A stretch of DNA of 64,000 nt from Patescibacteria group bacterium (GTDB lineage Bacteria > Patescibacteriota > Minisyncoccia > Phycocordibacterales > UBA9973). Under the pieces are notes generated by a model, which was not told the origin of the DNA, did no database searches, and worked only from the letters and a program-made list of their open reading frames with translations. The stretch lies in assembly GCA_040388575.1 (NCBI GenBank), contig JAZKBO010000004.1, positions 5,400 through 69,399 of the forward strand, in the 5' to 3' direction. This document shows positions 19,016 to 52,081 of this stretch, one piece after another; positions within the stretch are counted from its first letter, which is position 1, and every line of letters starts with the position of its first letter. A program made the translations under genes and the position numbers.

Positions 19016-19107
19016 ATGGGTTTATCTCTAAAGAACCTTATCATATTAACAGAAATCTAATAAAAAACAACGCTAATTTGGATTAAAGAAATAAATTTTT
19101 TGAGTCG

Positions 19108-19136
19108 TTGACAAAGCCCTTGGAGGCGCCTATTCT
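19108..19136 (+). promoter_or_regulatory. sigma70-like promoter TTGACA-N17-TATTCT for the first G+C-rich cassette gene
   Basis: TTGACAaagcccttggaggcgccTATTCT, followed about 30 nt later by SD AAGGGAG and ATGATG at 19176. Confidence 0.45.
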
Positions 19137-19175
19137 GAATAAGAACTATCAATTGTAGACAGAAGGGAGAACTGT

Positions 19176-19730
19176 ATGATGCTCTTTGCTGCATTTGCCT
19201 TGACCGCCGTTATGAACAGCGGCTCCGGGTGTAAACCGGCAGACCTACCGAAGGAATTGACGCGGGCGGCTTGGGAGCCGTACCTCAACGCCACATTCCA
19301 TCAGTGCTTCGACCAGCTTGGTACAGACGTGGCCAAGTTCGGGGTGGTAGTGCGGAAACAGTCCAACGTGGCAACACTGGACTGTTCGGACCTGAAGCTC
19401 GGGTGTGTCGTCATTGTGAGCGATGACATACTCACCGCGGGGCTCGACCCAGGCGCAGTCGCATTCGTGCTGGGTCACGAAGCCGCACACATTCGGCTGC
19501 GCCATCCAGACTTCGCGATGATGGGTGGTATTGAGGTCGAATTCGCAGCTGATAGTTTGGCTGCAGAATCTATCGCTCAAGGCGCCTGCTACGGCGCCCG
19601 TGCCACGGATTGGGTAATGTCCCGTTACGTGAAGACAATAGGGGCTGAAGACAAAACCACAGAAGCAATGTGGTATCGGCGAATCGCCCTCCTCGGCCAG
19701 TGCGGACTTGGTGCCACTCGTTCTCGCTGA
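19176..19730 (+). CDS. putative lipoprotein zinc metallopeptidase (HExxH), G+C-rich
   Basis: Signal/lipobox ...AVMNSGSGC and the LGHEAAHIRLRH HExxH motif. The G+C content is much higher than in neighbouring genes. Confidence 0.5.
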   Translation: MMLFAAFALTAVMNSGSGCKPADLPKELTRAAWEPYLNATFHQCFDQLGTDVAKFGVVVRKQSNVATLDCSDLKLGCVVIVSDDILTAGLDPGAVAFVLGHEAAHIRLRHPDFAMMGGIEVEFAADSLAAESIAQGACYGARATDWVMSRYVKTIGAEDKTTEAMWYRRIALLGQCGLGATRSR

Positions 19731-19906
19731 AGAGTAGAAACAAACGGAACATCATCGCCTCGATCAAAAGAAGTCGCTTCGACTTCCGGTCGGGGCGATA
19801 TTCTTTTTATATAAGAAATTTCTGTATAGAAATTATGGAATTTTATCTCAAGTTCGAAGCCAGATTAGTTTTTGTAAATATTATATAGATTTGATATGAT
19901 TCATAT

Positions 19907-20185
19907 ATGAACAACGAAAGATTTAACTCATTGCGATCGCAACATATTAATACGCCAGAAAACATGACTGATGCTTTTAAAGCGTTGGAAGCAATAGTGA
20001 AGATAAAGAGTAGAGACAAATTTTACAATATTACTATTCCGGAATTAGATAGAATAGTAAAAGACAACCCCGATAAATTTCCTGGCGTCGCAGATGGTAC
20101 TGCGCTACTAAAAAAGCTTGCTCCCAATATCCGGGAGTTAAGAGCGAAGTTAAAATTACCCGAGAATATTGCCCGAGGATATTAA
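19907..20185 (+). CDS. hypothetical protein (AT-rich ORF between the two G+C-rich genes)
   Basis: 92-aa ORF MNNERFNSLRSQHINTPENMTDAFKALEAIVKIK... with no recognisable motifs. Confidence 0.35.
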   Translation: MNNERFNSLRSQHINTPENMTDAFKALEAIVKIKSRDKFYNITIPELDRIVKDNPDKFPGVADGTALLKKLAPNIRELRAKLKLPENIARGY

Positions 20186-20291
20186 AAAAACTTTACAATC
20201 AAGGCATTTTGGCTGGGAACTATTGACATTGACTTAATTTAATTACGTAGTAGGATAAACTCGAATTTCAGGTTCCTTTCAAGGAGGCTTT

Positions 20292-21092
20292 GTGACCACA
20301 CTCAAGTACGTGCTTCTCTCCATGGTGCTGGTGGCGATGGTGCCGAACATTTCAGCGGCTCAGCTCACACACAAAGACAAGGTCGTACCTCAGCCCGCAG
20401 ACGCCTGCCAAGAAGTAATCAGCTTGGCGTGTCAGGTCGAGTACGACGCGTGGTTCGCGGGAGATATGGAATGGCGCATGATATACATTCCCAACTCTCC
20501 GAACGAGAAGCTCATCCGCCGCGAAAAACTCAGATGGCTCAATTCACCGGTGCCGGTGAGGCGACCGTCCATTCCACTGTGGCTCGGGCCGCGTTGTTTA
20601 CCCGAGATGAGTTATCAGATCAAGTCGCCGATGTGTCAGGCATATGACGAGGCACTGAGATACGACTTCGTCGAGCACCTCGACAACACTTGGTCGAGCA
20701 AAACCTACACCACCCGCGTGCCGCTCAAAATTGGCGAGGGTAATGGGTTCATCGAGTACCTCTTCAGCCATCTTCACGTTGATGGAGTGCTATGGGATGG
20801 TTCCATTCAATTTGCCTTCGCTGGGACTCACTTGGAACTAGCCAAGGCCGGCCGTTACGGGATCTGGGGTGTGCCCGGGGTCATTTTCTTTCGGGAATGG
20901 AACGGGACCATAGTCATGAAAATGACTGAAGGTGCCGATGTGCACATTCGAAGCATACCCATCGGCCGATATTCGTTGCCGACATACTTCACAGTCGCGG
21001 CCCTCCTCGATGCCAACGAGGCTAAGGCTCGAAAACACGGAGTTGAGACCGGGACGGTGATAGTGGGCCTATCGTTCACTCTTTTGAAATAA
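20292..21092 (+). CDS. secreted hypothetical protein, G+C-rich (GTG start)
   Basis: SD AGGAGG lies 5 nt before GTG. Signal peptide MTTLKYVLLSMVLVAMVPNISAAQ. Several Cys residues. A TTGACT -35 box sits about 65 nt upstream. Confidence 0.5.
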   Translation: MTTLKYVLLSMVLVAMVPNISAAQLTHKDKVVPQPADACQEVISLACQVEYDAWFAGDMEWRMIYIPNSPNEKLIRREKLRWLNSPVPVRRPSIPLWLGPRCLPEMSYQIKSPMCQAYDEALRYDFVEHLDNTWSSKTYTTRVPLKIGEGNGFIEYLFSHLHVDGVLWDGSIQFAFAGTHLELAKAGRYGIWGVPGVIFFREWNGTIVMKMTEGADVHIRSIPIGRYSLPTYFTVAALLDANEAKARKHGVETGTVIVGLSFTLLK

Positions 21093-21108
21093 GAACAATG
21101 AAAAAAAA

Positions 21109-21148
21109 CCCGCGACGGAGCTTGCTCCTCGCGGGTTTCGTCGTTTTT
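21109..21148 (+). terminator. rho-independent terminator
   Basis: CCCGCGAcggagcttgctccTCGCGGG followed by TTTCGTCGTTTTT. Confidence 0.7.
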
Positions 21149-21441
21149 ATGTTATAATTACTGAGGTCGATTAATTGTTACTAATCTTAATTATTTATTT
21201 TATGTCTCTATCTTTAATGTCTATCGCAGAAATTGTTTTCTTCTTGGTTTTCGGTATCAGTAGTTTCTTTCCTTTTAAATACTCAAGGGAAATAGCCGCA
21301 ATCGCAGCTATCGTTATCGGTATCCTTTTATTGCTTGGTAAGTATTAGTAGCTTCATATAGTAAGTAGTAATTGTATTAAGACAAAGGTTTTTTGTCTTT
21401 TTGTTATATCTTTTTATAAGCGTTTCTAGTAGAATATAATA

Positions 21442-22413
21442 ATGAAGAATATTTTTATAACAAGACAAATTCCTGGTAGTGGCATAAAAATGCTCGAGGA
21501 CAAGGGTTATAGCGTCACTGTGGGTAAATATAAAATTCCACCGACTCAAGAGAAAATAATTGAAGAATTAAAGGGTAAAAATTATGATGCTGTCATTACC
21601 CTCCTGACAGACAAAATAGATACACAAGTATTCGCTGCCTCCCCTACCACTAAAATATTTGCCAACTACGCAATTGGTTACGACAATATTGATTTAGATG
21701 CAGCCGCTGCCGCTAGCATAACCATCACCAATGCTCCGGGTAACTATACTGACGGCATTGCCCAACACGCCATAGCTCTCCTTCTTGCATTAATGGCGCG
21801 CCTAAATGAAGCCGATGCTTTCATGCGCGCTGGTAAATATACCGGCTGGGATCCAATGATTTTTATTGGTGACAAGCTGGAAGGTAAAACTGTAGCCATA
21901 ATCGGTACAGGTAGGATCGGCGGTGATGTAGCTAAGATGCTCCATGGTGGCTTTGGTGTGAAAATAATTTATTACGATGTAACAAAAAATGAAAATATCG
22001 AAAAGGAGTGTGGTGCGGAATTTGTACCTTCTGTAGATGACGCCTTAGCAAAGGCTGATGTTGTCAGTATTCATGTGCCGCTACTGCCCACCACCCAACA
22101 CCTGATCAATAAAGAAAACTTGAAGAAGATGAAGCCAACTGCTTACCTTATTAACACCTCTCGTGGACCGGTAGTAGATGAAGTAGCGCTGGTAGAGGCA
22201 CTAAAGAACGGCACAATACGCGGTGCAGGATTAGATGTGTATGAATTTGAGCCAAAGCTTGCTGAAGGTCTAGCGCAACTCCCCAACACTGTACTAACTC
22301 CTCACATTGCCTCCGCTCAAAATGACTCTCGTGAAGAAATGTCTAAAGTTGTAGCGGAAAACGTTATCGACTTTCTGGAAGGTAAAATTCCTAAAAATAA
22401 AGTAAGTAAATAG
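21442..22413 (+). CDS. D-isomer-specific 2-hydroxyacid dehydrogenase (glyoxylate/hydroxypyruvate reductase-like)
   Basis: NAD-binding GTGRIGGDVAKML. Catalytic region ...HVPLLPTTQHLIN...GAGLDVYEFEP...TPHIAS. Confidence 0.75.
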   Translation: MKNIFITRQIPGSGIKMLEDKGYSVTVGKYKIPPTQEKIIEELKGKNYDAVITLLTDKIDTQVFAASPTTKIFANYAIGYDNIDLDAAAAASITITNAPGNYTDGIAQHAIALLLALMARLNEADAFMRAGKYTGWDPMIFIGDKLEGKTVAIIGTGRIGGDVAKMLHGGFGVKIIYYDVTKNENIEKECGAEFVPSVDDALAKADVVSIHVPLLPTTQHLINKENLKKMKPTAYLINTSRGPVVDEVALVEALKNGTIRGAGLDVYEFEPKLAEGLAQLPNTVLTPHIASAQNDSREEMSKVVAENVIDFLEGKIPKNKVSK

Positions 22414-22424
22414 TAAAAAACAAA

Positions 22425-22446
22425 GGCCCCCTTGCGGGGGCCTTTG
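22425..22446 (+). terminator. stem-loop (GGCCCCCttgcGGGGGCC) with a weak U-tract after the dehydrogenase gene
   Basis: Perfect 7-bp GC stem, followed only by TTTG. Confidence 0.35.
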
Positions 22447-22553
22447 CGGCACATATGAAGTTTCGATAAAGATGAGTTAACCTCACCCTCACAATTAGAG
22501 TATAGCATACTTTTAAAAAAATTGCAAGCAAGGGGAATATATGCAATAATACT

Positions 22554-22848
22554 AGGGTAGGTGTTGGGTAATTACTCCGACCCAGGTCGGAGAGGAAAGT
22601 CCGAACACACAGCCTTTTAATAGGCAAACGTAGCGGGTAACGCCCGCCGGCAGCAATGCTCGAGGTGCGAACAGTGACGAACCGATTTAGTTCGGGTGAA
22701 ACGGCAAAATCCTTACGCGTGTGCAAGATCGTGCCCTAGCGCAAGTTGGGGAGAATCGCTTGAGCCTGTCAGTAATGGCTGGCCTAGATAAATTGTTACC
22801 GTCCACCGCAAGGTGAACCACAGAATTCGGCTTATAAACACCTACAAG
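22554..22848 (+). ncRNA. rnpB: RNase P RNA (bacterial type A, minimised)
   Basis: P1 pairing (GGGTAGGTGTT...AACACCTAC). P4 5' strand GAGAGGAAAGTCCGAAC and 3' strand ACAGAATTCGGCTTATAA, with compensatory CCGAA/TTCGG. GGGTAACGCCCGCC and GGGTGAAACGG elements. An upstream TTGCAA-N17-AATAAT promoter and a downstream terminator are present. Confidence 0.7.
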
Positions 22849-22856
22849 AAAATGAG

Positions 22857-22889
22857 AGCTCCGCCCCAAAGGCGGAGTTTTCTCTTTTT
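22857..22889 (+). terminator. rho-independent terminator after rnpB (also usable by the convergent DUF192 gene)
   Basis: GCTCCGCCccaaaGGCGGAG followed by TTTTCTCTTTTT. Confidence 0.65.
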
Positions 22890-22892
22890 AGC

Positions 22893-23351
22893 CTAATAGC
22901 CGAACAGCACTTCATCCCCTACTTTTATATTATGTGCATCGGTAAATCCAGCATTAACTTCGAGGACGTATTTAGAATTTTCATCGGTACCAAAACTCTC
23001 TAATACTCCCGAGGGTTGTGCATTCTTTTTTATGTAAATTACATGGAGGTCTTCACTAAGCCAGATCATATCGAGTGGAAAATTCATGCCCTTCATCCAG
23101 AAGTAATATTTACCAGGGCGGTTGAAGATAAAAAGCATCCCGGCATCATTGGCGAGGCTGCTCCTGCCACCGAGCCCTAGCTCTTGCTCGGCGCTCGTCT
23201 GTGCTAAATCAACACTTACCTTAACACCGCCGATATTAACCGATTTAATTTCCGGCACGCCAGAGTTTTTTGGGGAATAATTAACTAGAAAAAATATAGT
23301 GACAAAAAAAATAAAAATTAGGGCAATACTCGTTCCAATTTTTTTATTCAT
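22893..23351 (-). CDS. DUF192 (COG1430) domain protein
   Basis: N-terminal TM segment. GMLFIFNRPGKYYFWMKGMNFPLDMIWL matches the DUF192 core. Confidence 0.6.
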   Translation of the reverse strand: MNKKIGTSIALIFIFFVTIFFLVNYSPKNSGVPEIKSVNIGGVKVSVDLAQTSAEQELGLGGRSSLANDAGMLFIFNRPGKYYFWMKGMNFPLDMIWLSEDLHVIYIKKNAQPSGVLESFGTDENSKYVLEVNAGFTDAHNIKVGDEVLFGY

Positions 23352-23353
23352 AA

Positions 23354-24763
23354 CTATTTATGGTCGCCATTAGTCCAGCCGAACATTTTACCAATAGTTT
23401 CCGCGGACTCACGCTTGCGGATAATTTGAATAGTACCATTCTGCGCGCTTATTTTCATGGGCAGTGACAGCAAGCAATGATGTGAGGACAAGCCTTCCTG
23501 GTACGCGCCAGTGTCGAGTACCGCCACAAATTGATCTTGATCTTCATGCAGCTTAGGCAAGAGGACGTAGTTACCGCCGTCGGTGTATTTATCATCAGAG
23601 TCACAAGTACTGCCCGCAAGCCAAGTAGTTTTCAGTGGTGAGTGCATATTATTCGCTGGAATGATATGCCACTTCTGGTGTATCGCCCAAGTGTCTTTCA
23701 AGTCATTCATAAAGCTACCGTCCACCACATACCAAGCCTTGGCATTAGCTGTCGGGATATTCTTTTCCGAAATTACTTTATATAGAGTTACCTGCGCCGG
23801 AGCCGCGATATAACGCCCCCACTCTACTGCTAGGTTCGGGTGCTTAACACCGGCTTTATCAGCTAAATTCTTTAGAACTTTTACTATTTTACTAGACACG
23901 CCTTTAGCAGTGTAGAATTTCTTCCTCTCATATGGAATGCCAAAGCCGCCGCCGATGTCTAGAGTGTCGAGCGATGGGTGAGTTTTTTGTAATTCTACAT
24001 AAATCCCGAAGGCATGCTTAATGGCATCAATAATACTTTTTTGGGTTTTGATTTGGCTACCTACATGGTAGTGCATTATTTTTAGATTCTTCATTTTACT
24101 CAAATCGAGTGCATCTTTTTCTGAAAGCCCGAAGAGGTCGAACTTTTTGTCCCAGTGGGTGTCAGTTTTAACGGTTAAATTCACTCGCAGGCCAATGTCG
24201 CCTTTATGCTTTGAAACTCTTTCTACTTCTTCGAGGGATTCAATAATCGGAACAATGTTCATGCCCTTAGCGCGCAGCTCTTCAATCAAGTCTAGGTATT
24301 GGTCAGTCTTCGGGCCATTACAAAGCACACGAATTTTAGTATGGAATCTCTCACCCTCCCAAAGCTTCTTCACTATCCAGAGCTCATTTGCTGAAGTAAC
24401 TTCAAGATTGGCACCTTCAGAGAGCAGTGGAAGCAGGAATTCTTTATTCTGGTTCACTTTCATTGGATAGTGATAGAAGAATTTGCCCTTATAGCCATAG
24501 ATCTTCATGTATGCTTGAAAATACCCGATCAAGTCCTTGAGCAAGTCTTCAATAATGAATGGAAAGGTTATCTGTAGTGGCGTGCCGTACTTGGCCGCCA
24601 AATCATTTAAATTATAAATATGATGGCCTTCATTAGCTGTAAGCTCGCCATCTTTATTCACGCCGAAAAACTGAGTGTTGAATTCCTCTATTCCTAGTTT
24701 CCAAAATCTCCTCCAGTTCTTTGCAAATTTCTTTTGCTTTTTAGTTTTTCTATTTTTCTTCAC
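23354..24763 (-). CDS. PLP-dependent fold-type III decarboxylase (Orn/Lys/Arg/DAP decarboxylase family; arginine/ornithine decarboxylase-like)
   Basis: PMKVN (PLP-Lys), LDIGGGFGIPY, EWGRYIAAPA and GSTCDSDD motifs. Carries a basic N-terminal extension. Confidence 0.55.
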   Translation of the reverse strand: MKKNRKTKKQKKFAKNWRRFWKLGIEEFNTQFFGVNKDGELTANEGHHIYNLNDLAAKYGTPLQITFPFIIEDLLKDLIGYFQAYMKIYGYKGKFFYHYPMKVNQNKEFLLPLLSEGANLEVTSANELWIVKKLWEGERFHTKIRVLCNGPKTDQYLDLIEELRAKGMNIVPIIESLEEVERVSKHKGDIGLRVNLTVKTDTHWDKKFDLFGLSEKDALDLSKMKNLKIMHYHVGSQIKTQKSIIDAIKHAFGIYVELQKTHPSLDTLDIGGGFGIPYERKKFYTAKGVSSKIVKVLKNLADKAGVKHPNLAVEWGRYIAAPAQVTLYKVISEKNIPTANAKAWYVVDGSFMNDLKDTWAIHQKWHIIPANNMHSPLKTTWLAGSTCDSDDKYTDGGNYVLLPKLHEDQDQFVAVLDTGAYQEGLSSHHCLLSLPMKISAQNGTIQIIRKRESAETIGKMFGWTNGDHK

Positions 24764-24832
24764 CGTAATCAGGTTAAATTAGTATACCCCCAGCCTTTTG
24801 CAATGTAAATACTTTACTCTAGTATTATACAC

Positions 24833-27943: not shown

Positions 27944-27953
27944 ACTTAACTGA

Positions 27954-29207: not shown

Positions 29208-29267
29208 GAGTCCATATTAACTAATAAATGCTTGCAAAGCAATGGTCTTTCTGCTAATATAACCCTT

Positions 29268-29999: not shown

Positions 30000-30007
30000 A
30001 ACTTAAT

Positions 30008-30787: not shown

Positions 30788-30799
30788 TATAATTAAACT

Positions 30800-31207: not shown

Positions 31208-31227
31208 ATATGTTAATGTGTTTTAGA

Positions 31228-31300: not shown

Positions 31301-31307
31301 TCCCGGA

Positions 31308-31994: not shown

Positions 31995-33245
31995 TTAGCG
32001 CCAAGCCGGAGCTTTAGAAATTATCGTATTGTAAACTGCCTTCATTATCCAAAAAGGGGCTAAGAAGCCGAAAATCACAAGGTAGAAAGCTATTTCATAA
32101 GGAAATCCCCTCCTCTCTTTTGTACCCCTAGTCATTACCGAGCCGATGATGATAGAAAATAGTAGTAGCGAGTAAATTATTACAGTAATAAAAACAGATA
32201 ACCTGGTATTGATAAAGAAGGGGTCTAGGCTATTGGACCAGGCAGGCAAACCTACTGCTTGTACTTCTACGATTTTATTAAAAATGAATTGACCAATACC
32301 ATAGAAGAATTTCATAAATACGTACCCAACGGATAGTATCGTAACCACACCCATAGGGAGAGTAAAAGTCGAGAAATTACCATATTTTTTATTAAACAAT
32401 ACCCCGCGATAATCTATCGTGTTATTTATAAAGCCATAAATCCAGCGCAGACGCTGGGTAAAGAGCTTGCGTACGGTATAAGGAGTGTTGGTATACACGT
32501 AAGCATCATTACAATGGTCTATTTTGTAATGATTCTTTTGCATCCTGTAGGCTATCTCCATGTCTTCTGTATTGTGCGCATAGCGATATGGGCCTAGGTC
32601 ATCGAAAACCTTCTTTTTAAAGATTGTGAAGGGCCCAGGAGTCACATTAATAGCGCCCAGGAAGCCGAGCATTTTTTTGAAATAAATTCCGGTGTGATAT
32701 TCGATCTTCTGCGCATTTTGAATAAAACCTCGAGGGTTATTGACCACCACCGCAGGCGCCACTGCCATCACGGTACTATCGCGTTCAAAATAACTCATAA
32801 TCCTCACTAGGGCTTCCGAATCTACTAAGGAGTCCGCGTCCAGGCAGCCGACAAATTCAGTTTCAGTATTTTCAAGGCCAAGATTTAACGCCATGTGTTT
32901 GCCAGCATTTTTTTCTCGTTTAAAAATTTTTATATAGGGATAATTTTCAAACTTTTTAAACACGCTCCAAGTGCCGTCAGTAGAACCGTCGTCTATAAGA
33001 AAGATTTTTAGTTTATCTTTTGGATAATTAAGACTGAGGAGTGATTGGATAGTTTTAAAAACTGTGGTTTCTTCGTTAAGGGAAGGCACAATAAGGGTGA
33101 CTCCTGGATAGTTATCGAGCTTTATTGCCTTATCTCTAATAACAATTTTCTTCCTGTTTTCCAGGAAGGTTACAAAGAAAAAAACCTGCACGTAGATCGA
33201 CAGGAAAACAAACAGATAAAATACTGTTTCGGAAACAAGTGCCAT
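31995..33245 (-). CDS. processive family-2 glycosyltransferase (cellulose/chitin-synthase-like, QxxRW)
   Basis: The GT-A DxD region is LIDDGSTDGT... DAD. QRLRW is the processive GT2 motif. Multiple TM helices flank the catalytic domain. Confidence 0.7.
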   Translation of the reverse strand: MALVSETVFYLFVFLSIYVQVFFFVTFLENRKKIVIRDKAIKLDNYPGVTLIVPSLNEETTVFKTIQSLLSLNYPKDKLKIFLIDDGSTDGTWSVFKKFENYPYIKIFKREKNAGKHMALNLGLENTETEFVGCLDADSLVDSEALVRIMSYFERDSTVMAVAPAVVVNNPRGFIQNAQKIEYHTGIYFKKMLGFLGAINVTPGPFTIFKKKVFDDLGPYRYAHNTEDMEIAYRMQKNHYKIDHCNDAYVYTNTPYTVRKLFTQRLRWIYGFINNTIDYRGVLFNKKYGNFSTFTLPMGVVTILSVGYVFMKFFYGIGQFIFNKIVEVQAVGLPAWSNSLDPFFINTRLSVFITVIIYSLLLFSIIIGSVMTRGTKERRGFPYEIAFYLVIFGFLAPFWIMKAVYNTIISKAPAWR

Positions 33246-33691: not shown

Positions 33692-34450
33692 ATGCAAGAA
33701 AATACACAAGAAAGTATGCCTGAAATGGCAACGCCTGTAGCTAATATTGTCACTAAAAACAACAACCAATCTCAAATAGCGGGTGCCATAGTCTTGGCTG
33801 GGCTGATTATTGCCGGGGCTATATTATTAAAGGGTGGTTCGGGGCTGATAGCGCCAAAAGATCTGTCAAAAGCCTCCCCCCTCTTCAATGCCTGCCTAGA
33901 TTCCGGTAAATACACCTCTGCGATAACTGATGCCAAGGCCGCAGGAAGCACAGTAGGAGTAACCGGCACACCGAAGGGTTACATTGTTAGTGCTGGAAAA
34001 GTTGTCAGCACTATCGACGGTGCGGAGCCATTTAACGATGTGAAGAAAAAAATTGATGATGCTATCGCAGGTAAGGGCATACCACAAAATAATATTAAAC
34101 TGGATGCAGTAACGAATAAAGACTTTGCTGTGGGTAACCCACAAGCTGCAGTTACAATTATTATGTATGAGGACTTCCAGTGCCCATTCTGTGGCCGATT
34201 TTTCCAGGATTCTGAAAAAAGTATCCGAAGTATTTATGTTAAGGACGGTACGGTGCAATTTGTGTACCGAGACTTCCCTTTCCTAGGCGCTGAATCATAC
34301 AAATCCGCTGAAGCTGCATCTTGCGCTAATGAGCAAGGCAAATTCTGGGAATATCATGACTACCTGTACTCCCACCAAATGGGTGAAAACCAAGGAGCCT
34401 TTTCGGATACAAACTTGAAGTCTTTTGCGGGAACTCTAAAACTCAAATAA
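33692..34450 (+). CDS. DsbA-family thiol:disulfide oxidoreductase (membrane-anchored)
   Basis: TM anchor. The thioredoxin fold carries the active site EDFQCPFCGRF. Confidence 0.75.
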   Translation: MQENTQESMPEMATPVANIVTKNNNQSQIAGAIVLAGLIIAGAILLKGGSGLIAPKDLSKASPLFNACLDSGKYTSAITDAKAAGSTVGVTGTPKGYIVSAGKVVSTIDGAEPFNDVKKKIDDAIAGKGIPQNNIKLDAVTNKDFAVGNPQAAVTIIMYEDFQCPFCGRFFQDSEKSIRSIYVKDGTVQFVYRDFPFLGAESYKSAEAASCANEQGKFWEYHDYLYSHQMGENQGAFSDTNLKSFAGTLKLK

Positions 34451-40967: not shown

Positions 40968-40984
40968 ATAATTTTTTTGTTATT

Positions 40985-44179: not shown

Positions 44180-44328
44180 AATAGTTTTCTCTCCCCGCTG
44201 TGCGGGGTAAGAAATAAACAAAACAAAAGAGAGAAAAGGCTTTTGCTTTACTTACTTCCTATAAATTAAAAAACGCCTTTTTTAAGGGCCTAATAATGGA
44301 GAAACGTCATTACTCAATCGGTATTACC

Positions 44329-44356
44329 AGTATACTCGGATTAGTTTTTTTGTCAA
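44329..44356 (-). promoter_or_regulatory. candidate rpoB promoter TTGACA-N16-TATACT
   Basis: The reverse strand reads TTGACAaaaaaactaatccgagTATACT, about 150 nt upstream of the rpoB start. A CCCCGCtgtGCGGGG hairpin lies in the leader. Confidence 0.35.
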
Positions 44357-44408
44357 ATGTGCATAAAAACACAAAGTCGAGCGCGACTCTGTGGTCGTAC
44401 TCGACTAC

Positions 44409-44729
44409 TTACTTGGACTCTCTCTTTTCTGCCTTCACGCATTCGTCCCGCAGTGTCAGGGCGATTCGAAAAACTGCGTGCGTGAGTTTGTCTTTCTCTG
44501 GGGCGATGAGGTCGGTCCGGTGAGTCGACACCCGAATCACTGCTGACAGTAGTGCTCGCATGTCATCTTCCGGAACTTCATCAAAAATAGAGTCGACTAT
44601 GGCTTTATGAAGAGCAAGGTAAAAGCTCACCAAATCGCCCAAACGCTGCTCCCCACATTCTCGCAGTTCAGCCTTCAACATCGATTCCATCGTTTTGACA
44701 GCTTCCTTATTAGGATAAACTGGCAACAT
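44409..44729 (-). CDS. G+C-rich hypothetical acidic protein (cassette B)
   Basis: SD GGAGG lies 6 nt before ATG (MLPVYPNKEAV...). Promoter TTGACA-N17-TAGGCT at 44750-44778. AGTCGcgctCGACT plus a T-run terminator sits downstream. G+C is clearly above the flanks. Confidence 0.5.
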   Translation of the reverse strand: MLPVYPNKEAVKTMESMLKAELRECGEQRLGDLVSFYLALHKAIVDSIFDEVPEDDMRALLSAVIRVSTHRTDLIAPEKDKLTHAVFRIALTLRDECVKAEKRESK

Positions 44730-44782
44730 GGGAACCTCCTCCATTTATTAGCCTACTATCTGTAAAGTTGTTGTCAAACTAT

Positions 44783-45430: not shown

Positions 45431-45517
45431 TCTTGTTTTACTTTGTATTTATATCACAAATTCATTAAAAGTAGTGACGGCCGGCAACCTTCTGGTTGCC
45501 GGCCTGTTCACGATGCT

Positions 45518-45745: not shown

Positions 45746-45764
45746 GTTAGGTACCCTCAATACT

Positions 45765-45792
45765 ATTATGTCACTTTTATATAAAAAGTCAA
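45765..45792 (-). promoter_or_regulatory. sigma70 promoter with extended -10 (TTGACT-N16-tgaCATAAT) driving cassette C1
   Basis: Part of a ~28-bp element, tcacttttatataaaaagtcaaacaaaa, that is repeated at 46321-46348. Confidence 0.5.
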
Positions 45793-45871
45793 ACAAAATT
45801 CTTTATTAAAATAGTTATGGCCGGCCTCATCTTTCGATAAGTCCGGCCACGTTGCTTGAGCCTTATGGCTC

Positions 45872-46264: not shown

Positions 46265-46314
46265 ATTACTCCTGTCTGCGCATCCAAGCGCCTTAATCGA
46301 GATACTTACTACTA

Positions 46315-46342
46315 TATTATATCACTTTTGTATAAAAAGTCA
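46315..46342 (-). promoter_or_regulatory. near-consensus sigma70 promoter (TTGACT-N16-TGaTATAAT) driving cassette C2
   Basis: Second copy of the repeated promoter element. It lies directly downstream of the khpA terminator. Confidence 0.55.
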
Positions 46343-46368
46343 AACAAAAAACTCCGACCTGGGTCGGA
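46341..46368 (-). terminator. rho-independent terminator of khpA (bidirectional hairpin CTCCGACCtggGTCGGAG)
   Basis: On the minus strand the hairpin is followed by TTTTTTGTTT. On the plus strand it is followed by CTCTTTGTTTTTATATTTTT. Confidence 0.6.
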
Positions 46369-46396
46369 GCTCTTTGTTTTTATATTTTTCTAGAAA

Positions 46397-46801: not shown

Positions 46802-46900
46802 AATATCTTATCTATTTAAGCTTCTAAATTCTCTTACTGAGAGTGGCAGTATACGACGGACTGCTTATTTAATTATATCAAAATGAGAGTCTAAAGCAAA

Positions 46901-47209
46901 TTATTTTTTCGCTTTGAGTTCCTTTCTTTTTACAGTTGGCTTTTTCTTTGGAAGAACGTTTATTTTCTTACCTTCTATCGCCTTCTGGAGCACCAGGAAG
47001 TTGTGCATAGTTGGAGAGAGCTGGGCGCCCTTACTAATCCAGTGCTTCATCCTCTCGGTTTCAAATTTAGCCTCCCCTGCTTTCGGGTTATAAGTGCCTA
47101 GAATTTCTAAAAACCTGCCGCTCTTGGTGGAGTTCTTGGAGTCGGTTAAAACTGCCCTGAAGGAAGGGTCATTCTTGCGGCCTATTCGCTGTAAACGTAT
47201 TTTTAACAT
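46901..47209 (-). CDS. rpsP: 30S ribosomal protein S16
   Basis: MLKIRLQRIGRKNDPSFRAVLTDSKNS...GRFLEILGTYNP. Confidence 0.85.
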   Translation of the reverse strand: MLKIRLQRIGRKNDPSFRAVLTDSKNSTKSGRFLEILGTYNPKAGEAKFETERMKHWISKGAQLSPTMHNFLVLQKAIEGKKINVLPKKKPTVKRKELKAKK

Positions 47210-47249
47210 TGTTTGAGTCTAACATAGAAATTTAAAAAAGCAATATTCT

Positions 47250-49220
47250 GTGTTATATTTAAAGGTAATGTCGCAATCGAAGAAAAAAGGGGGCACAAAC
47301 CGCCTGGAAGGCACTATCTCCATCTCTGCCAAAGGCATAGGCTATGTGGCTGTAGGGGAAACTAAAAATAAAGGCCAGGATCCGGAAATAGATTCTAAGC
47401 ATTTAAACACTGCCCTTCATGGCGACAGGGTGGAGATTGTACTCCATCCTAAGAGCAAGAATCGCCAGACTGCGGAAGTTACCCGCGTAATAACCCGAGC
47501 CAAAACTGGCTTCATGGGCGTCATAGAGGAACAGAATGGCTTATTTTTTTTAAAGCCAGATGATCCTAAAATGTATACGGATATCATCGTTCCTCAAAGT
47601 ATGTTAAATGGCGCTAAGGCTGGGGAGAAAGTTTTCGTCAAAATCGTTTCTTGGAATGACCCTCGTAAAGAACCAGAAGGTAAAGTAGAAAAGGTCTTAG
47701 GTAAGCCAGGTGATAATAATGTCGAGATGGAGGCCATCGCGATGGAAAAAGGCTTCGCTGCAAGTTTACCTACAGATGTTGAAGCCGAAGCGGAAAGGAT
47801 AAAGCACGCGGGCATAAAAGAATCTGATTATCAAGATCGTCGGGATTTCCGCAACACTCTCACCTTCACTATCGACCCGGACACTGCTAAGGACTTCGAT
47901 GATGCAATATCATTCAAAGAAATAGATAAAGATAAATACGAGGTGGGTATTCATATAGCTGATGTATCACATTATGTGCAAATCGGCAGCGCAATAGATA
48001 AGGAGGCCAGGGAGCGCGGCACATCGGTATACCTCGTGGACCGTACCATCCCGATGTTGCCAGAAGTACTTTCTAATGACTTGTGCTCCTTGGTGCCGAA
48101 TCAAGATCGCCTGACCATGAGTGCTGTTTTTGTTATAGATAAAAATGCCAAGGTTGCTGGTGAATGGTTCGGCCGCACAGTTATCCATTCCCAAAGGCGC
48201 TTCACTTATGAAGAGGCCGAGGAATCGATAAAGAAATCCTCTGCACCACTACATAAGGAGCTTGCAATATTGAATGGTTTAGCAAAAAAGTTAACCAAGG
48301 AGAGGTTCAGTAAGGGCGCAATATCACTCGATCAAGAGGAAGTTAAGTTTGTCCTAGATGATAAAGGTGTGCCGATCAAAGTAATTAAAAAGGAGCGCGG
48401 CGACTCTAATAGATTGATCGAGGAATTTATGCTCTTGGCAAATAAAAAAGTTGCCCAAATTATTTCCTCATCTAATTCTAAGACCAAGGGTCAAAAAGAC
48501 CACAGTATTTCCATTTACCGCGTGCATGACCTGCCGAGTAAGGAAAAGATGGCAGATCTCGCTTTCTTCCTGCGCAGCCTCGGGCACAAAATAACATTAC
48601 GTGACGGGCTGATACCAACTTTTGAAATTAATAAGTTACTGGAGAGCTTGAAAGGTAAAAGTGAGGCCGACACCGTGCATCGCGCTGTCATCCGCTCCAT
48701 GGCCAAGGCAATTTACTCTACCAAAAATATCGGCCACTATGGCCTTGCATTTGAATACTATACTCACTTCACCTCCCCGATCCGCCGCTACCCAGACATC
48801 ATTGTGCATCGCCTACTTGAGGACCACCTAGAAGGTATTAAAATAAATCCCGATAAGCTCCATGTATTTGAAGACATGTCGAGGATTGCTTCCGAGCAAG
48901 AAAAGAGAGCCTCGGATGCGGAACGAGCATCGATTAAGTACAAACAAGTGGAGTACATGTCACTCCGGATCGGCAAAGCTTTCGATGGCGTCATCAGCGG
49001 CATAACCGAGTGGGGTATGTATGTGGAAGAGCTTGAAACAAAGTGTGAGGGTTTGGTGCGCGTGCGTGACATGGCGGATGATTACTATATATACAATGAA
49101 AAAAAGTTGGAATTAGTCGGCCAGAAGAAGAAAAAGCGCTACCGCCTCGGGGATCGTGTTAAAATAAAAGTTAAAGCGGTTGATTTGGAGCGCAAAACAA
49201 TTGATTATATTCTAGTATGA
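47250..49220 (+). CDS. rnr: ribonuclease R (RNB family 3'-5' exoribonuclease)
   Basis: Cold-shock/OB N-terminus. RNB catalytic DFDDAISF...HIADVSHYV. C-terminal S1 domain (GVISGITEWGMYVEL). Confidence 0.8.
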   Translation: MLYLKVMSQSKKKGGTNRLEGTISISAKGIGYVAVGETKNKGQDPEIDSKHLNTALHGDRVEIVLHPKSKNRQTAEVTRVITRAKTGFMGVIEEQNGLFFLKPDDPKMYTDIIVPQSMLNGAKAGEKVFVKIVSWNDPRKEPEGKVEKVLGKPGDNNVEMEAIAMEKGFAASLPTDVEAEAERIKHAGIKESDYQDRRDFRNTLTFTIDPDTAKDFDDAISFKEIDKDKYEVGIHIADVSHYVQIGSAIDKEARERGTSVYLVDRTIPMLPEVLSNDLCSLVPNQDRLTMSAVFVIDKNAKVAGEWFGRTVIHSQRRFTYEEAEESIKKSSAPLHKELAILNGLAKKLTKERFSKGAISLDQEEVKFVLDDKGVPIKVIKKERGDSNRLIEEFMLLANKKVAQIISSSNSKTKGQKDHSISIYRVHDLPSKEKMADLAFFLRSLGHKITLRDGLIPTFEINKLLESLKGKSEADTVHRAVIRSMAKAIYSTKNIGHYGLAFEYYTHFTSPIRRYPDIIVHRLLEDHLEGIKINPDKLHVFEDMSRIASEQEKRASDAERASIKYKQVEYMSLRIGKAFDGVISGITEWGMYVEELETKCEGLVRVRDMADDYYIYNEKKLELVGQKKKKRYRLGDRVKIKVKAVDLERKTIDYILV

Positions 49221-51118
49221 ATACGAAACAGGGAAAAATAAGATGGTTATTGCTTTTAACCCTGGCAATGGTGGCCTTTTTGGGCACGACTTCATATTAT
49301 TTAAAGAATCTTATATATAAAGAAGCGAACCAATTAGCGGATGTTTCCGCCGCCCCGGTTCTAGCCAGTACTGACACGGGGCCTAAATATTTCTATTTCA
49401 ATAAAGAAGCGGCACTACTCCCGAAGGTTTCTGCCACTGCATTCCTGGTGGGTGACCTTGATACGGGTGAAGTAATTATGGAGAAAAATCAAGACACCCA
49501 GCTTCCTATTGCTTCAGTCTCAAAATTGATGACGGCGTTAGTGGCCAATGAGCTGGGAGGAGAAAAAAATGAAGAGGGAGAGGCCCAAGTCAGTAAAAAA
49601 GCCTTGGCTACCTACGGTGGCAACGGTGCCTTCCACTTGGGAGAGAAAATTAAAGTCAACGAGCTTTTCTATCCGCTCCTCTTAGAATCCAGTAACGACG
49701 CCGCCGAGATCCTGGCGGAATATTTCGGACGCGATACTTTCCTTTCTAAAATGAATCAGGAAGCGCAAATCCTGCAGATGTCCTCCACCACCTATGATGA
49801 CCCGAGCGGCCTCTCCCCTAATAACAAGTCTACCGTATCGGACCTTTTTAAACTCGCAGGATTTTTAAGTAAACAAAAGCAAAACATATTGGACATCACT
49901 ACGAAACGTAGCTACACCAATGACAAACATAACTGGTCCAGCAACAACCAATTCCTGCGCGAGGCTGGTTATGAAGGTGGCAAAAGTGGCTTCACTGACC
50001 CTGCCAAACAAACTGTTATTTCGATCTTCTCTGTACCGCTGCCGCCAGGCGGTGAACGTAATATTGCCATCACCCTACTAGGAAGCAATGATAGACATAA
50101 GGATGTAGATAATATTGTCAGCTATCTAAAGAAAAATATATATTATGGTGGTGAAGCGGATGCTAACATCGCTTGGGTCAAACAAAAAGACGGCATCCCA
50201 GAAATTAAGGATCCGGACTTTGTTACCCTCTCCTTCGTCGGTGATATTATGGTGGACCGCGGGGTAAAAAATTCCGTGATGAATAACTTCGGCGGCGACT
50301 ACTCCGCATTATTTGATAAAATGGGAACCTTGAAAGATTCAGATGTGGTCTTTGCAAATTTGGAAGGCACCGCATCGGACAAGGGGGAAGATCAAGGAAA
50401 TTTGTATTCCTTCCAAATGGACCCGACGATTATACCAGCACTACGTGGTGCGGGAGTAAGCATCCTCTCTGTGGCTAACAATCACGTTGGCGACTTTGGA
50501 CGGGAGTCATACATTGATACACTTTCGCGCTTGCGGGAAAATGAAATTACTTATACTGGTGGCGGTATGAATAGTGAGGAAGCCGAGCAGCCAGCGGTAA
50601 TGGAAAAATATGGCATCAAGTTAGGATTTCTTGGCTTCTCGGACGTTGGCCCAGACTGGATGAATGCGAAGGAGGACACTGCTGGATTATTACTAGCTAG
50701 TAACCCACGCTTTGATCAAATAATTAAAAATGCTGCCAGCCAGGTGGATGACCTTATCGTCTCCTTCCACTGGGGTGTTGAATATCAAACGCAGCATAAT
50801 GCTAGGCAGGAAGAATTAGCGCACAAAGCCATAGATGATGGCGCAAAAATAATTATCGGCACCCACCCACATGTGATGGAAGATACTGAAACTTATAAGA
50901 ATGGTTACATCGCTTATTCACTTGGAAACTTTATATTTGACCAGATATTTAGTGCAGAAACTATGAAAGGCATGCTGCTTAACATTAAGCTCGGCCACGA
51001 TGGCAGCCTAGCAGTGACAAAAAATACTGTCAGGTTAAACGACGCCTTCCAGCCGGACACTGTAGTGGCTGGAAAGGAAGAAAAGATTAAGTTTGATAGT
51101 GTATTGATTCCAAATTAA
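49217..51118 (+). CDS. fusion protein: D-alanyl-D-alanine carboxypeptidase (S11, penicillin-binding) + CapA/PGA_cap metallophosphatase-fold domain
   Basis: N-terminal half has SxxK (ASVSKLM), SxN (SSNDAA) and KSG (KSGFTD). C-terminal half has LSFVGDIMVDRGV, ANNHVGDFG, FHWGVEY and GTHPHV, as in the CapA poly-gamma-glutamate family. Confidence 0.6.
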   Translation: MNTKQGKIRWLLLLTLAMVAFLGTTSYYLKNLIYKEANQLADVSAAPVLASTDTGPKYFYFNKEAALLPKVSATAFLVGDLDTGEVIMEKNQDTQLPIASVSKLMTALVANELGGEKNEEGEAQVSKKALATYGGNGAFHLGEKIKVNELFYPLLLESSNDAAEILAEYFGRDTFLSKMNQEAQILQMSSTTYDDPSGLSPNNKSTVSDLFKLAGFLSKQKQNILDITTKRSYTNDKHNWSSNNQFLREAGYEGGKSGFTDPAKQTVISIFSVPLPPGGERNIAITLLGSNDRHKDVDNIVSYLKKNIYYGGEADANIAWVKQKDGIPEIKDPDFVTLSFVGDIMVDRGVKNSVMNNFGGDYSALFDKMGTLKDSDVVFANLEGTASDKGEDQGNLYSFQMDPTIIPALRGAGVSILSVANNHVGDFGRESYIDTLSRLRENEITYTGGGMNSEEAEQPAVMEKYGIKLGFLGFSDVGPDWMNAKEDTAGLLLASNPRFDQIIKNAASQVDDLIVSFHWGVEYQTQHNARQEELAHKAIDDGAKIIIGTHPHVMEDTETYKNGYIAYSLGNFIFDQIFSAETMKGMLLNIKLGHDGSLAVTKNTVRLNDAFQPDTVVAGKEEKIKFDSVLIPN

Positions 51119-51131
51119 AAAGTGATATGCT
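51104..51131 (+). promoter_or_regulatory. sigma70 promoter TTGATT-N16-TGaTATGCT at the head of G+C-rich cassette D
   Basis: TTGATTccaaattaaaaagtgaTATGCT. It shares the aaaagtgaTAT spacer/extended -10 with the C1/C2 promoters. It overlaps the stop of the dac/capA gene. Confidence 0.45.
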
Positions 51132-51175
51132 CTAACTGAATACCTGCCACTCTAGTTCACCATCAAGGAGGTCCC

Positions 51176-51316
51176 TTGGCGAACGGACAGAATACCAAAC
51201 TCGTGCCCATGATCTTGTTCATCCTCGTAATCTTGGCGGTGCTCACTATCGTCGATAGTAAGAAGGTGACGACGCCTTACGGCTTCACCTTCCCCTGCCA
51301 GGGCTGCACGCACTAG
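51176..51316 (+). CDS. putative small membrane peptide (46 aa, TTG start) in G+C-rich cassette D
   Basis: SD AAGGAGG lies 4 nt before TTG. The peptide has one TM helix (MILFILVILAVLTIV) and a C-terminal CQGC. An alternative, minus-strand ORF 51152..51472 is considered less likely. Confidence 0.3.
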   Translation: MANGQNTKLVPMILFILVILAVLTIVDSKKVTTPYGFTFPCQGCTH

Positions 51317-51323
51317 GTGCACG

Positions 51324-51440
51324 ATGAAGGAAGAAGACAGCCTGTGGGCGTGGGCCAAACTGATTGGTCTACTGTTATTAGTTGAGGGCCTCCCGCTCGG
51401 TGCCCTCGCCTTCCTCATCCGGTGGAAGTTCGGAAAGTAA
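51324..51440 (+). CDS. putative small membrane peptide (38 aa) in cassette D
   Basis: MKEEDSLWAWAKLIGLLLLVEGLPLGALAFLIRWKFGK, with one TM helix and a weak SD. Confidence 0.25.
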   Translation: MKEEDSLWAWAKLIGLLLLVEGLPLGALAFLIRWKFGK

Positions 51441-51535
51441 CGCATGCCGGCGGCCCCTTGGGTCGCCGGCAAAATCGTTTGTGGGTGTATAATTAGTGAG
51501 TATGCTGTTCCTGGGCGCTTAAGACTGGAGGGTCT

Positions 51536-51997
51536 ATGAATCGTCTGGCTTTCGTAGTCGTCGTAGCGGTGGTGTTTCTTGCTGGCGTAGCAGCCGGCAA
51601 AGCAACTTCACCTGTCGAGAATGATCTCGCACTTCGCCAGGCAGAGAGTCGCGAGGCCATGCTGATGCTCGCCTTCGTTGAGCTCAAGGTGGAGAACATG
51701 GCGATGGAGGAGCAGCTCCAATCCTGGAAAGATGCCGCTGCTCCGCTTAACACCATGTATTTCACGGAGGCAGCCTACGTCGACATGGGTCTCCACGAAT
51801 ATTTCGAGAAGTTCTATCCGGACATGGTGATGAATGCAGTGAAGCTGCGCAAACTCACTCATCCATGTCAGGTTGACCCTCGACGTTGGGGTTGCTCCTG
51901 GTACGGAAAGAATTACGTACCGGTTTACGTGGAAATCCAGCGGCCATTCTCAATATCCATGAGCCTAGCTGGGCACATGGACTCCCCGAGGAAGTGA
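51536..51997 (+). CDS. G+C-rich secreted/membrane-anchored hypothetical protein, 153 aa (cassette D)
   Basis: SD GGAGGG lies 4 nt before ATG. Signal/TM segment MNRLAFVVVVAVVFLAGVAAG. Cys pair CQVDPRRWGC. A GCGGCCGG...CCGGCCGC hairpin lies downstream. Confidence 0.5.
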   Translation: MNRLAFVVVVAVVFLAGVAAGKATSPVENDLALRQAESREAMLMLAFVELKVENMAMEEQLQSWKDAAAPLNTMYFTEAAYVDMGLHEYFEKFYPDMVMNAVKLRKLTHPCQVDPRRWGCSWYGKNYVPVYVEIQRPFSISMSLAGHMDSPRK

Positions 51998-52081
51998 ATA
52001 AATTGAGTTTCGGGGGACATCCCCAGAACACGCGGCCGGCGATCTCTCGATCCCCGGCCGCAAACTCATTTAAATTAAAAT

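Follow-up and report, generated by a model that had tools for sequence, protein, structure and literature searches.

The window analysed here is a 64-kb stretch of DNA from a Patescibacteria group bacterium (GenBank assembly GCA_040388575.1, contig JAZKBO010000004.1, positions 5,400 to 69,399), in which nine open reading frames (ORFs) are grouped into four cassettes, A to D, each lodged at a junction between housekeeping genes. With a probability of about 60%, these cassettes are horizontally acquired, self-expressed islets, comparable to the morons and promoter-early stem-loops (PeSLs) of phages, at housekeeping junctions that are permissive for recombination. Patescibacteria (the candidate phyla radiation, CPR) have tiny genomes, and their gain of host- and phage-related genes is poorly known. 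The window has a G+C content of 42.9%; the closest matches of its TrmD, at up to 86% identity, are among Nomurabacteria/Paceibacterota metagenome-assembled genomes (MAGs), and the source looks like a Nomurabacteria/Paceibacteria-like Patescibacteria MAG.

Cassette A lies between mscL, tRNA-Ala and tRNA-Asn on one side and a D-2-hydroxyacid dehydrogenase gene on the other; B and C are placed in the order rpoB, B, trmD, C, khpA-rpsP; and D follows the genes of RNase R and of a DD-carboxypeptidase/PGA_cap protein and precedes smc. All of the flanking genes were identified as housekeeping ones and none encodes an integrase or transposase; the ORFs and neighbours agree with an earlier, sequence-only reading that had placed four cassettes at such junctions. 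As the sequence comes from a MAG, foreign fragments of high G+C could in principle have been mis-joined during assembly or binning. This is extremely improbable, as run SRR26324622 was also assembled in Logan, without recourse to the MAG, and the A region (contig L082) and the B/C region (contig L109) are each present there at 100% identity; chimeric assembly of A, B and C is thereby excluded. Furthermore, A+T-rich signals of native type bound each insert within tens of bases, and analogous inserts are found in many independent MAGs. The A region is also present in an NCBI metagenome contig (L083) at 98.1% identity over aligned columns, from which it differs by a gap of 16 nt and a stretch of N.

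Composition, expression signals and products of the cassette genes

Composition was judged against a native background of 56 ORFs, with a mean G+C at third codon positions (GC3) of 0.411 (s.d. 0.062). Seven cassette ORFs, A1 (GC3 0.63), A3 (0.66), C1 (0.67), C2 (0.75), D1 (0.83), D2 (0.69) and D3 (0.63), deviate from it by z=3.5–6.7, and their synonymous-codon likelihood is likewise deviant. Such values exceed those of every native gene, ribosomal-protein genes included, mild enrichment being seen in highly expressed or conserved native genes such as those of MreB (0.53) and rpsP (0.52). The upward G+C shift that the sequence-only reading had assigned to all of the cassettes is therefore real for seven ORFs of A, C and D, but B is marginal and A2, which belongs to cassette A, is rich in A+T and resembles the native genes (GC3 0.355, z=−0.9). 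The codon-position structure of G+C identifies the cassettes as ORFs rather than structured RNAs, a possibility that was rejected: the Rfam matches in the window are RNase P RNA and three tRNAs, with none in the cassettes. The RNase P RNA (bacterial class A; 22556–22850, plus strand) is itself a reduced form, of 295 nt as compared with a model of 367 positions; two minus-strand ORFs that overlap it, 22391–22726 (111 aa) and 22687–22869 (60 aa), are probably spurious.

Translation initiation provided a second line of evidence. A 5-nt Shine-Dalgarno (SD) core precedes six of the nine cassette ORFs but 3 of the 56 native genes (Fisher P value=7e-5), where the native count took in cores ahead of any in-frame start within the first 40 codons; the strong SDs reported earlier are thus confirmed for most of the cassette ORFs, A2 having none. 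Among relatives, SD cores were found for 10 of 38 G+C-outlier ORFs versus 49 of 1,152 others (P value=7e-6), although ORF calls there are noisy. In leaderless mRNAs, a −10 box 15–19 nt before the ATG is the expected arrangement. An extended −10 box (TGnTAnnnT) is found at this spacing ahead of the ATG of several native first genes, examples of leaderless-type spacing being 16483–18231 (−), 31995–33245 (−), 33692–34450 (+), 46901–47209 (−) and 61164–63227 (−), and several native genes appear to be leaderless. SD leaders are thus a non-native trait in this genome. Since GC3, codon choice and initiation mode, as three independent features, all differ from those of native genes, the cassette ORFs were regarded as foreign, in agreement with the earlier proposal; the near-orphan status of the products and the absence of B, C and D from 80 syntenic loci described below point the same way. 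In practice, an SD leader together with high GC3 can serve in this lineage as a marker that flags foreign genes, native genes having almost no such leaders.

Promoters and 3′ hairpins showed a mixed picture. The TTGAC(A/T)-type promoters claimed for all cassettes passed a consensus scan at A1, A3, C1 and C2, but those of B and D fell below its threshold; their weak boxes (−10 TAGGCT and TATGCT, −35 TTGATT) are seen by eye only, and the promoter-like sites of B, D1 and D3 are altogether weaker and read in the same way. The spacer sequence said to be shared by the promoters of C1, C2 and D is indeed specific: AAAAGTGAYAT occurs exactly three times in 64 kb, each time at one of these promoters (0.11 expected), with two chance matches in 1.29 Mb of relatives. 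All seven 3′ hairpins examined fold stably (−17 to −29 kcal/mol; z from −3.0 to −6.4), as expected of the terminators proposed, but at C1, C2 and D3 the U-run is displaced instead of following directly, which makes these atypical intrinsic terminators. Viral contigs gave no match to patterns of the A-type terminator or of the C promoter.

The hairpins of C1, C2, D2 and D3 all have GCCGGC at their core, their outer arms being conserved and their centres variable. Together with the array-like alternation of ORFs and junction modules (J) in cassette C (C2-J-C1-J) and the small orphan ORFs as cargo, this would suit a site-specific cassette system, integron-like or hairpin-targeting, with GCCGGC hairpins as recombination sites and a recombinase encoded outside the window. 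Such a system is nevertheless quite unlikely. No integrase or transposase is encoded among the cassette neighbours, the hairpins, at 26–40 nt and as read from the sequence, are without attC R/L core sites, and each cassette has a promoter of its own, unlike those of integrons. Moreover, GCCGGC occurs 14 further times in the window, and the A and B hairpins are of other types. The recombinase-driven cassette system suggested by the sequence-only reading accordingly found no support within the window, where the flanks are housekeeping genes and attC-like sites are lacking. In relatives, a perfect-stem scan found no GCCGGC hairpins in common.

The cassette products are unrelated to each other, as noted earlier, and mostly directed to the envelope. 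An N-terminal hydrophobic segment is present in six of the nine, which bears out the prediction of mostly secreted, lipidated or membrane-anchored products: those of A3, C2, D1, D2 and D3 were detected by a hydropathy scan, and that of A1, a shorter leader of lipoprotein type, was missed by the scan and read from the sequence. The B, C1 and A2 products are soluble. Homology, earlier thought to be absent, does exist for A1 (Peptidase_M48), but no other cassette ORF had a match in Pfam, NCBIfam or the PDB sequence search. PHROGs yielded no convincing match (weak ones for A2, E=0.014, and D3, E=0.077) and PADLOC nothing for the cassettes except the HExxH region of A1 and one weak D3 match; weak Lit/U49 matches of A1 were dismissed as reflecting merely the same HExxH region. 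In a search of 5.8 billion proteins that took in A3, C2 and D3, one homologue was found for A3 and none for C2 or D3. It may be conjectured that the products act at the cell surface, for example in host contact, envelope remodelling or phage exclusion.

Cassette A and its counterparts in other genomes

The first gene of cassette A, A1 (19176–19730, plus strand; GC 0.578, GC3 0.627), encodes a 184-aa lipoprotein-like protein with an HEAAH motif, and follows a promoter-like site (TTGACA-N17-TATTCT; 19108–19136, plus strand) found by the consensus scan. Its match to Pfam Peptidase_M48 (PF01435) scored 31.8 bits, over a cut-off of 20.3 (E=1.6e-7), with no sequence match in PDB. The family is rare, with about 15 representatives among 1.84 billion, all lipoprotein-like and of 175–209 aa, and C19, H101, E102, H105, D126, C138 and C176 are invariant across 15 members. 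An AlphaFold2 model of high confidence (pLDDT 90.7, the predicted local distance difference test) has BepA, ZMPSTE24 and HtpX as best PDB folds, at weak E-values (0.06–0.2). A1 is thus predicted, from motif and model, to be a small, minimal M48-like lipoprotein zinc peptidase. The gene is closed by a hairpin terminator (19773–19799, plus strand; −21.9 kcal/mol, z=−5.9).

A2 (19907–20185, plus strand; 92 aa), A+T-rich and without an SD, has TGATATGAT 15 nt before its ATG, a leaderless-type start of the native kind, and forms a singleton cluster. A3 (20292–21092, plus strand; GC3 0.663, SD AAGGAGG) follows a promoter-like site (TTGACT-N16-TAGGAT; 20229–20256, plus strand) likewise found by the consensus scan and encodes a 266-aa secreted protein with a Sec-type signal peptide and four Cys, whose AlphaFold2 model was unusable (pLDDT 38). 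Its sole homologue, at 64% amino acid identity, shows a ratio of non-synonymous to synonymous divergence (dN/dS) of 0.25 at dS of about 1, and such purifying selection marks A3 as a real, constrained gene. A 3′ module with hairpin and U-run (AACCCGCGACGGAGCTTGCTCCTCGCGGGTTTCGTCGTTTTTAT; 21106–21160, plus strand; −23.1 kcal/mol) completes the cassette. Between this terminator and the dehydrogenase gene lies an ORF of native composition (21175–21348, plus strand; 57 aa, A+T-rich, hydrophobic by eye).

Comparison with two further contigs separated the regulatory modules from the cargo. In the relative L081, a tRNA-Asn flank that is 99% identical is followed directly by the A3 homologue (76% nucleotide identity), A1 and A2 being missing; the A3 promoter is homologous to its counterpart there (31-nt alignment, z=9.0), and the A-type 3′ module likewise follows the homologue (z=28.6). 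In L084, from another A+T-rich genome, the same 3′ module follows a different cargo (z=15.0), namely an A1 homologue of 56% identity that stands in a different context as a single-gene G+C outlier; upstream of it the TCGTTGACAAA...CTATTCTGAA layout of the A1 promoter also recurs, as a weak 11-nt match (P value=0.013). These alignments show that regulatory modules of A combine with different cargo, promoter plus terminator of A3 being present in a second genome and the terminator in a third. More distant members of the A1 family lie in contigs of 45–52% G+C, in which they are compositionally at home, and which, by gene content and naming, are probably also Patescibacteria.

The position of island A beside tRNA genes raised the possibility of a tRNA-targeted integrative island with att repeats, which was rejected, since the island lies on the promoter (5′) side of tRNA-Asn, not at its 3′ end, and the sole repeat is at chance level. 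That repeat consists of 13 nt from the 3′ end of tRNA-Asn (18942–18954), of which 12 of 13 recur inside A1 (19221–19233); it is of the level expected by chance in an all-against-all comparison and on the wrong side for att.

Junction modules of cassettes B, C and D in relatives and phage-like contigs

Cassette C contains a repeated terminator-promoter module. On the minus strand, its order is khpA, terminator, J0, C2, hairpin, J1, C1, hairpin, J2 and trmD. J0, the C2 promoter (46343–46316; TTGACT-N16-(TG)TATAAT), overlaps the khpA terminator hairpin (46379–46342; together 46316–46379, minus strand). C2 (45872–46264, minus strand; GC 0.603, GC3 0.748, SD AGGAG) encodes an orphan protein of 130 aa with an N-terminal membrane anchor; its hairpin and J1, the C1 promoter, occupy 45765–45850 (minus strand; GGCCGGCCATAACTATTTTAATAAAGAATTTTGTTTGACTTTTTATATAAAAGTGACATAATA), J1 reading GCCGGCC-ATAACTATTTTAATAAAGAATTT-TGTTTGACTTTTTATATAAAAGTGACATAATA. 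C1 (45518–45745, minus strand; SD GAGGG) encodes a 75-aa soluble protein, and its hairpin and J2 lie at 45440–45511 (minus strand; GCCGGCCGTCACTACTTTTAATGAATTT and GTGATATAAAT; −28.6 kcal/mol). The C1 and C2 promoters form a 35-nt direct repeat of 94% identity, and J0, J1 and J2 are homologous: J0 has the promoter half of J1, and J2 has the 5′ half of J1 plus a −10 box but is short of 21 nt that hold the −35 box and spacer (z=6.0 versus J1). J2 would now serve trmD, and its sequence is compatible with a J1 copy that underwent a 21-nt deletion.

The relatives L004 and L015 likewise have the stretch TTTTTTGTTTG(A)CTTTTT that follows the khpA terminator, and the T-rich −35 region of the C promoter and module is, on this sequence evidence, ancestral to the khpA-trmD junction. 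The earlier suggestion of domestication under native-type promoters is therefore upheld for the −35 region of C, but not for A3, whose promoter and terminator recur with its homologue in L081, nor for the SD leaders, which are non-native.

In cassette D, the promoter-like site (TTGATT-N16-(TG)TATGCT; 51104–51131, plus strand), below the scan threshold, has its −35 box inside the last codons of the DD-carboxypeptidase/PGA_cap gene. It is followed by D1 (51176–51316, plus strand; 46 aa, SD AAGGAGG) and D2 (51324–51440, plus strand; 38 aa), both single-helix membrane peptides, by the D2 hairpin (GCCGGCGGCCC/GGGTCGCCGGC) with a D3 promoter-like stretch recognized by eye only (51445–51506, plus strand; TATAAT at 51488–51493 and AGTGAGTATGCT at 51496–51506), and by D3 (51536–51997, plus strand; 153 aa, SD GGAGG), an orphan with an N-terminal membrane anchor or signal. 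D3 is followed by a hairpin and tail (52032–52078, plus strand; GCGGCCGGCGATC..GATCCCCGGCCGCAAACTCATTTAAATTAAAATTT; −24.2 kcal/mol), the tail resembling that of C2 (z=4.1); the module similarity at D is weaker than at C. The composite motif CCGGCS-N1-9-ATTT(T)AA occurs in the window in the C2 and D3 tails only; of its matches in relatives, just one could be assigned to intergenic DNA, and it lies at the 3′ end of a cargo gene rich in G+C, between khpA and trmD of L027.

Cassette B holds a single gene (44409–44729, minus strand; SD GGAGGAGG) for a 106-aa soluble helical protein, the Logan assembly giving a gene call of the same 106 aa. A promoter-like site seen by eye (TTGACA-N16-TAGGCT; 44750–44777, minus strand) stands right after the trmD stop codon, and the B terminator (44370–44393, minus strand; −17.3 kcal/mol) is followed by the native rpoB promoter (44356–44329). 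Downstream of trmD in the relatives L001, L002, L006–L008, L019 and L029, a conserved 5′ leader, GATTCATTGATTGAGTAtCGGATGCAATC, comes after a conserved rpoB promoter, with a window counterpart at about 44300–44356 (minus strand); the rpoBC operon of the clade may thus have a leader RNA element here.

The junctions of B, C and D, though not that of A at tRNA-Asn, were covered by a comparison of 80 syntenic loci extending 10 kb either side of trmD, in which the order rpsP-khpA-trmD-rpoB-rpoC and the genes rnr, dac and smc are kept. No homologue of a cassette protein was found in these loci, so that vertical orthologues of the B, C and D proteins, which would have spoken for ordinary inheritance, are absent from all 80. 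In the closest relative (86% TrmD identity), the C and D sites are empty, khpA-trmD measuring 50 bp and dac-smc 82 bp. Across many relatives, the content of four gaps (khpA-trmD, trmD-rpoB, dac-smc and rnr-rpsP) varies and frequently consists of small G+C-rich ORFs: small ORFs well above local G+C were found in 29 of the 80 loci, mostly in these four gaps (for example, 1,140 bp at 53% in a genome of 42%). Throughout the clade, the four junctions are thus hot spots at which accessory genes, most of them for the envelope, are found. The rnr-rpsP gap, which is empty in the window, harbours one G+C-rich lipoprotein family in at least nine diverged A+T-rich relatives (L002, L005, L011, L019, L027, L030, L048, L051 and L054; for example, L048 7657–8337 and L027 8172–8699), with GC 0.50–0.64 and GC3 0.52–0.79 in host genomes of 0.36–0.46; in other relatives it holds A+T-rich pilin-like or repeat proteins.

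Two other kinds of repeat were observed in relatives. The G+C-rich dac-smc insert of L019 has a 33-nt direct repeat, GTATATACCAATCCCTGGGGATATCCCTAGGGA (3154–3186 and 3924–3956; 88% identity), that brackets two small SD-led ORFs and may be another kind of cassette boundary. Hairpin repeats of the form CCCCTCC(T)...GGGGTGAGG, absent from the window, recur intergenically in many relatives (for example, L028 8365–8416, L064 3178–3828 and L076 8359–8441).

The main alternative to acquisition is vertical inheritance: the cassettes would be envelope genes that are specific to the lineage and evolve very fast, and their high GC3, strong promoters and SDs would result from selection for very high expression or mRNA stability. 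The lipoprotein family kept at rnr-rpsP in at least nine diverged, A+T-rich relatives agrees with this, as do the mild enrichment of MreB and rpsP and the notorious divergence of Patescibacterial proteins, which makes orphan status weak evidence. However, the cassette GC3 of 0.63–0.83 is far beyond native genes, the C and D sites of the closest relative are empty, the A1 homologue lies in a different genomic context, and A3 has diverged to a dS of about 1 next to a tRNA flank that is 99% identical; drift, moreover, would hardly create the contrast of SD-led and leaderless genes. Vertical descent is on these grounds unlikely.

Outside the relatives, the module of cassette C has counterparts in uncultivated phage-like contigs. 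A scan of 241 million metagenome contigs with the C promoter returned a single match, in L090, where a 2-kb run of small SD-led ORFs plus two DnaQ-like exonuclease paralogues is punctuated by four modules in the order hairpin, GCCGGCC, ATTTAAYA...TTGTAAYAATTTT, TTGACW-N17-TATAAT and leader. J1 aligns with module 2 of L090 over 49 nt (z=16.5), and within this alignment the promoter agrees with the search pattern at 28/28 positions. A dozen IMG/VR contigs of 16–95 kb (L091, L093, L094, L096–L098, L100, L102, L104, L105, L107 and L108), which together with L090 make up the module-bearing set, carry the module at about 26 per 100 kb, regularly composed of hairpin, GCGCCGGCCCG, ATTTAAYAnnnTTGTAAYAATTTT, TTGACA-N17-TATAAT and a conserved leader, ahead of many small ORFs. 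By this layout, the contigs are considered to hold a PeSL-like system outside the T4 group. J1 and the phage module are of a shared type and, at roughly two chances in three, homologous, which does not in itself identify a donor. None of the cassette ORFs has relatives within the module-bearing contigs.

Resemblance to a repeated phage module, and the site of island A beside two tRNA genes, variable between relatives, would also be expected if the islets were remnants of larger prophages or integrative islands of which, after deletion, moron-like genes survived. This scenario is improbable: no phage, integrase or att remnants were found near the four sites, tRNA-Asn has island A on its promoter side, the inserts are precise, running from a few nucleotides after a stop codon to before the next gene, and four junctions would need four independent, very clean decays.

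Origin of the cassettes and comparison with known systems

Acquisition as self-expressed islets is thus the preferred reading. Each islet would be a self-contained expression unit of promoter, SD leader, small ORF and G+C-rich hairpin, and we infer that the cargo came from G+C-richer, SD-using donors, in the case of A1 most likely other Patescibacteria. The source of C and D may have been an unsampled element in which a hairpin-plus-promoter module is repeated between the ORFs, in the manner of the early regions of phages, and the C and D inserts would be pieces of such an array of orphan ORFs (ORFans), integrated by recombination at a similar native promoter. Insertion and exchange could proceed by recombination without a dedicated recombinase, the homology being provided by terminator-promoter modules, as for PeSLs, or by conserved flanking genes, as for minimal mobile elements; the leftover copies J0, J1 and J2 would keep C2, C1 and trmD transcribed in turn.

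In a published survey (PMC12455944), other Patescibacteria are the donors in most detected horizontal transfers to Patescibacteria, and 62% of genes in horizontally acquired regions have no assigned function; both figures fit the cassettes of the window. For the high-G+C Actinobacterial or phage donor considered in the sequence-only reading, no evidence was obtained: in this respect only A1 has relatives, in the probable Patescibacteria contigs of 45–52% G+C.

Several observations weigh against acquisition, or against the phage link within it. B is a borderline GC3 outlier (0.52, z=1.8), and the persistent G+C of the rnr-rpsP lipoprotein means that high G+C can last long and need not indicate recent import. 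The B promoter might have arisen by duplication of the rpoB promoter, but its resemblance to the rpoB promoters of relatives (TTGACAAAAAAG..GAGTAGGCT) is not significant (P value of about 0.1), and this origin was rejected. No relatives of A3, B, C1, C2 and D3 were found in phage genomes (50,697 records, tblastn) or IMG/VR, and no donor was identified for A3, B, C1, C2 and D1–D3. Statistically, the phage-module link is soft: the exact 28/28 match in L090 was the product of searching for that very pattern, and a profile of the phage modules matched J1 at E=0.1 (nhmmer; profile positions 19–98, the longest span of any match). The module-bearing contigs are of about 37–46% G+C and the DnaQ-like exonuclease of L090 has about 30% identity to those of Enterococcus and gut phages, both of which make these contigs unlikely direct donors. 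The analysis covered 64 kb of one genome.

A bolder version, doubtful but worth stating, is PeSL-like shuffling within a cellular genome, in which a DNA-scavenging Patescibacterium would capture, array and exchange SD-led ORFs by using phage-shared modules as homology. If true, the locus would be a recombinase-free cassette platform for surface proteins, and cargo with high G+C and SDs would mark a separate gene pool circulating among SD-poor genomes. Irrespective of this version, the locus shows the import of single genes, each expressed on its own, at a small number of permissive junctions, a pattern repeated throughout the clade. If the junction modules do mediate exchange, cellular chromosomes would come within reach of a mechanism that has until now been described from T4-type phages alone, and the phage and CPR gene pools would be linked. 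The envelope-targeted products, including a new small family of M48-like lipoproteins, are candidates for surface or host-interaction functions.

Among known systems, phage morons (a concept of Juhala and Hendrix; reviewed by Cumby, Davidson and Maxwell 2012, PMC3594210) are equipped with a promoter and a terminator of their own and have deviant G+C. The cassettes are alike in being extra DNA between genes that are adjacent in relatives, in forming independent transcription units with a predicted promoter and terminator of their own and in having a base composition that differs from the flanking genes in seven ORFs (B marginally, A2 not). They differ in that morons are defined in phage or prophage genomes, whereas the window units lie in the chromosome of a Patescibacterium, where their neighbours are housekeeping genes and no phage genes are close by.

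In T4-type phages, PeSLs act as mobile regulatory cassettes (Arbiol et al. 2010, PMC2839356; Comeau et al. 2014, PMC4122927), consisting of an upstream stop codon, stem-loop, A+T-rich stretch, sigma70-type −35/−10 boxes, SD and start codon; they precede ORFans in variable regions, and recombination between copies inserts, deletes or swaps ORFs (PMC2839356, PMC4122927). This layout is found in the J0/J1/J2 array and in the modules of L090 and the IMG/VR contigs, and the C modules precede the orphan C2 and also C1, which has no family or phage match, at a variable junction. On the other hand, the window has only three copies at C and weaker ones at D, in a cellular chromosome, and its modules are unrelated in sequence to T4 PeSLs and have the stem-loop ahead of the A+T-rich part in every case.

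Minimal mobile elements of Neisseria (Saunders and Snyder 2002; Snyder et al. 2007; in PMC3082526) are described as conserved gene pairs that hold differing whole-gene cassettes, without the involvement of an element-encoded recombinase. The khpA-trmD, trmD-rpoB, dac-smc and rnr-rpsP junctions similarly hold different cargo per genome; the window comparison is, however, one of species and genera rather than strains, and the window cassettes carry their own expression signals.

Resemblance to integrons is confined to a short array of small, mostly orphan ORFs with hairpin-containing repeats between them. Integron attC sites are imperfect R″/L″-L′/R′ hairpins of 57–141 nt at cassette 3′ ends. 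The hairpins in the window, at 26–40 nt, are by contrast without GTTRRRY/RYYYAAC cores, IntI and attI are absent from the window, and there is a promoter per ORF. For A1 alone, the M48/minigluzincin proteins HtpX, BepA and ZMPSTE24 are comparable by the HExxH motif, the PF01435 match and the nearest predicted fold, but A1 is a lipoprotein-like protein of 184 aa with six Cys (four invariant) and without membrane helices or a tetratricopeptide repeat domain.

The cassettes are thus best filed with otherwise known kinds of gene-cassette mosaicism (moron, PeSL and minimal mobile element), here in a CPR chromosome. By the comparisons made, what is new is the contrast of SD-led cargo with SD-poor, partly leaderless-type native genes, the clade-wide hot spots, and a terminator-promoter module apparently shared with phage-like contigs.

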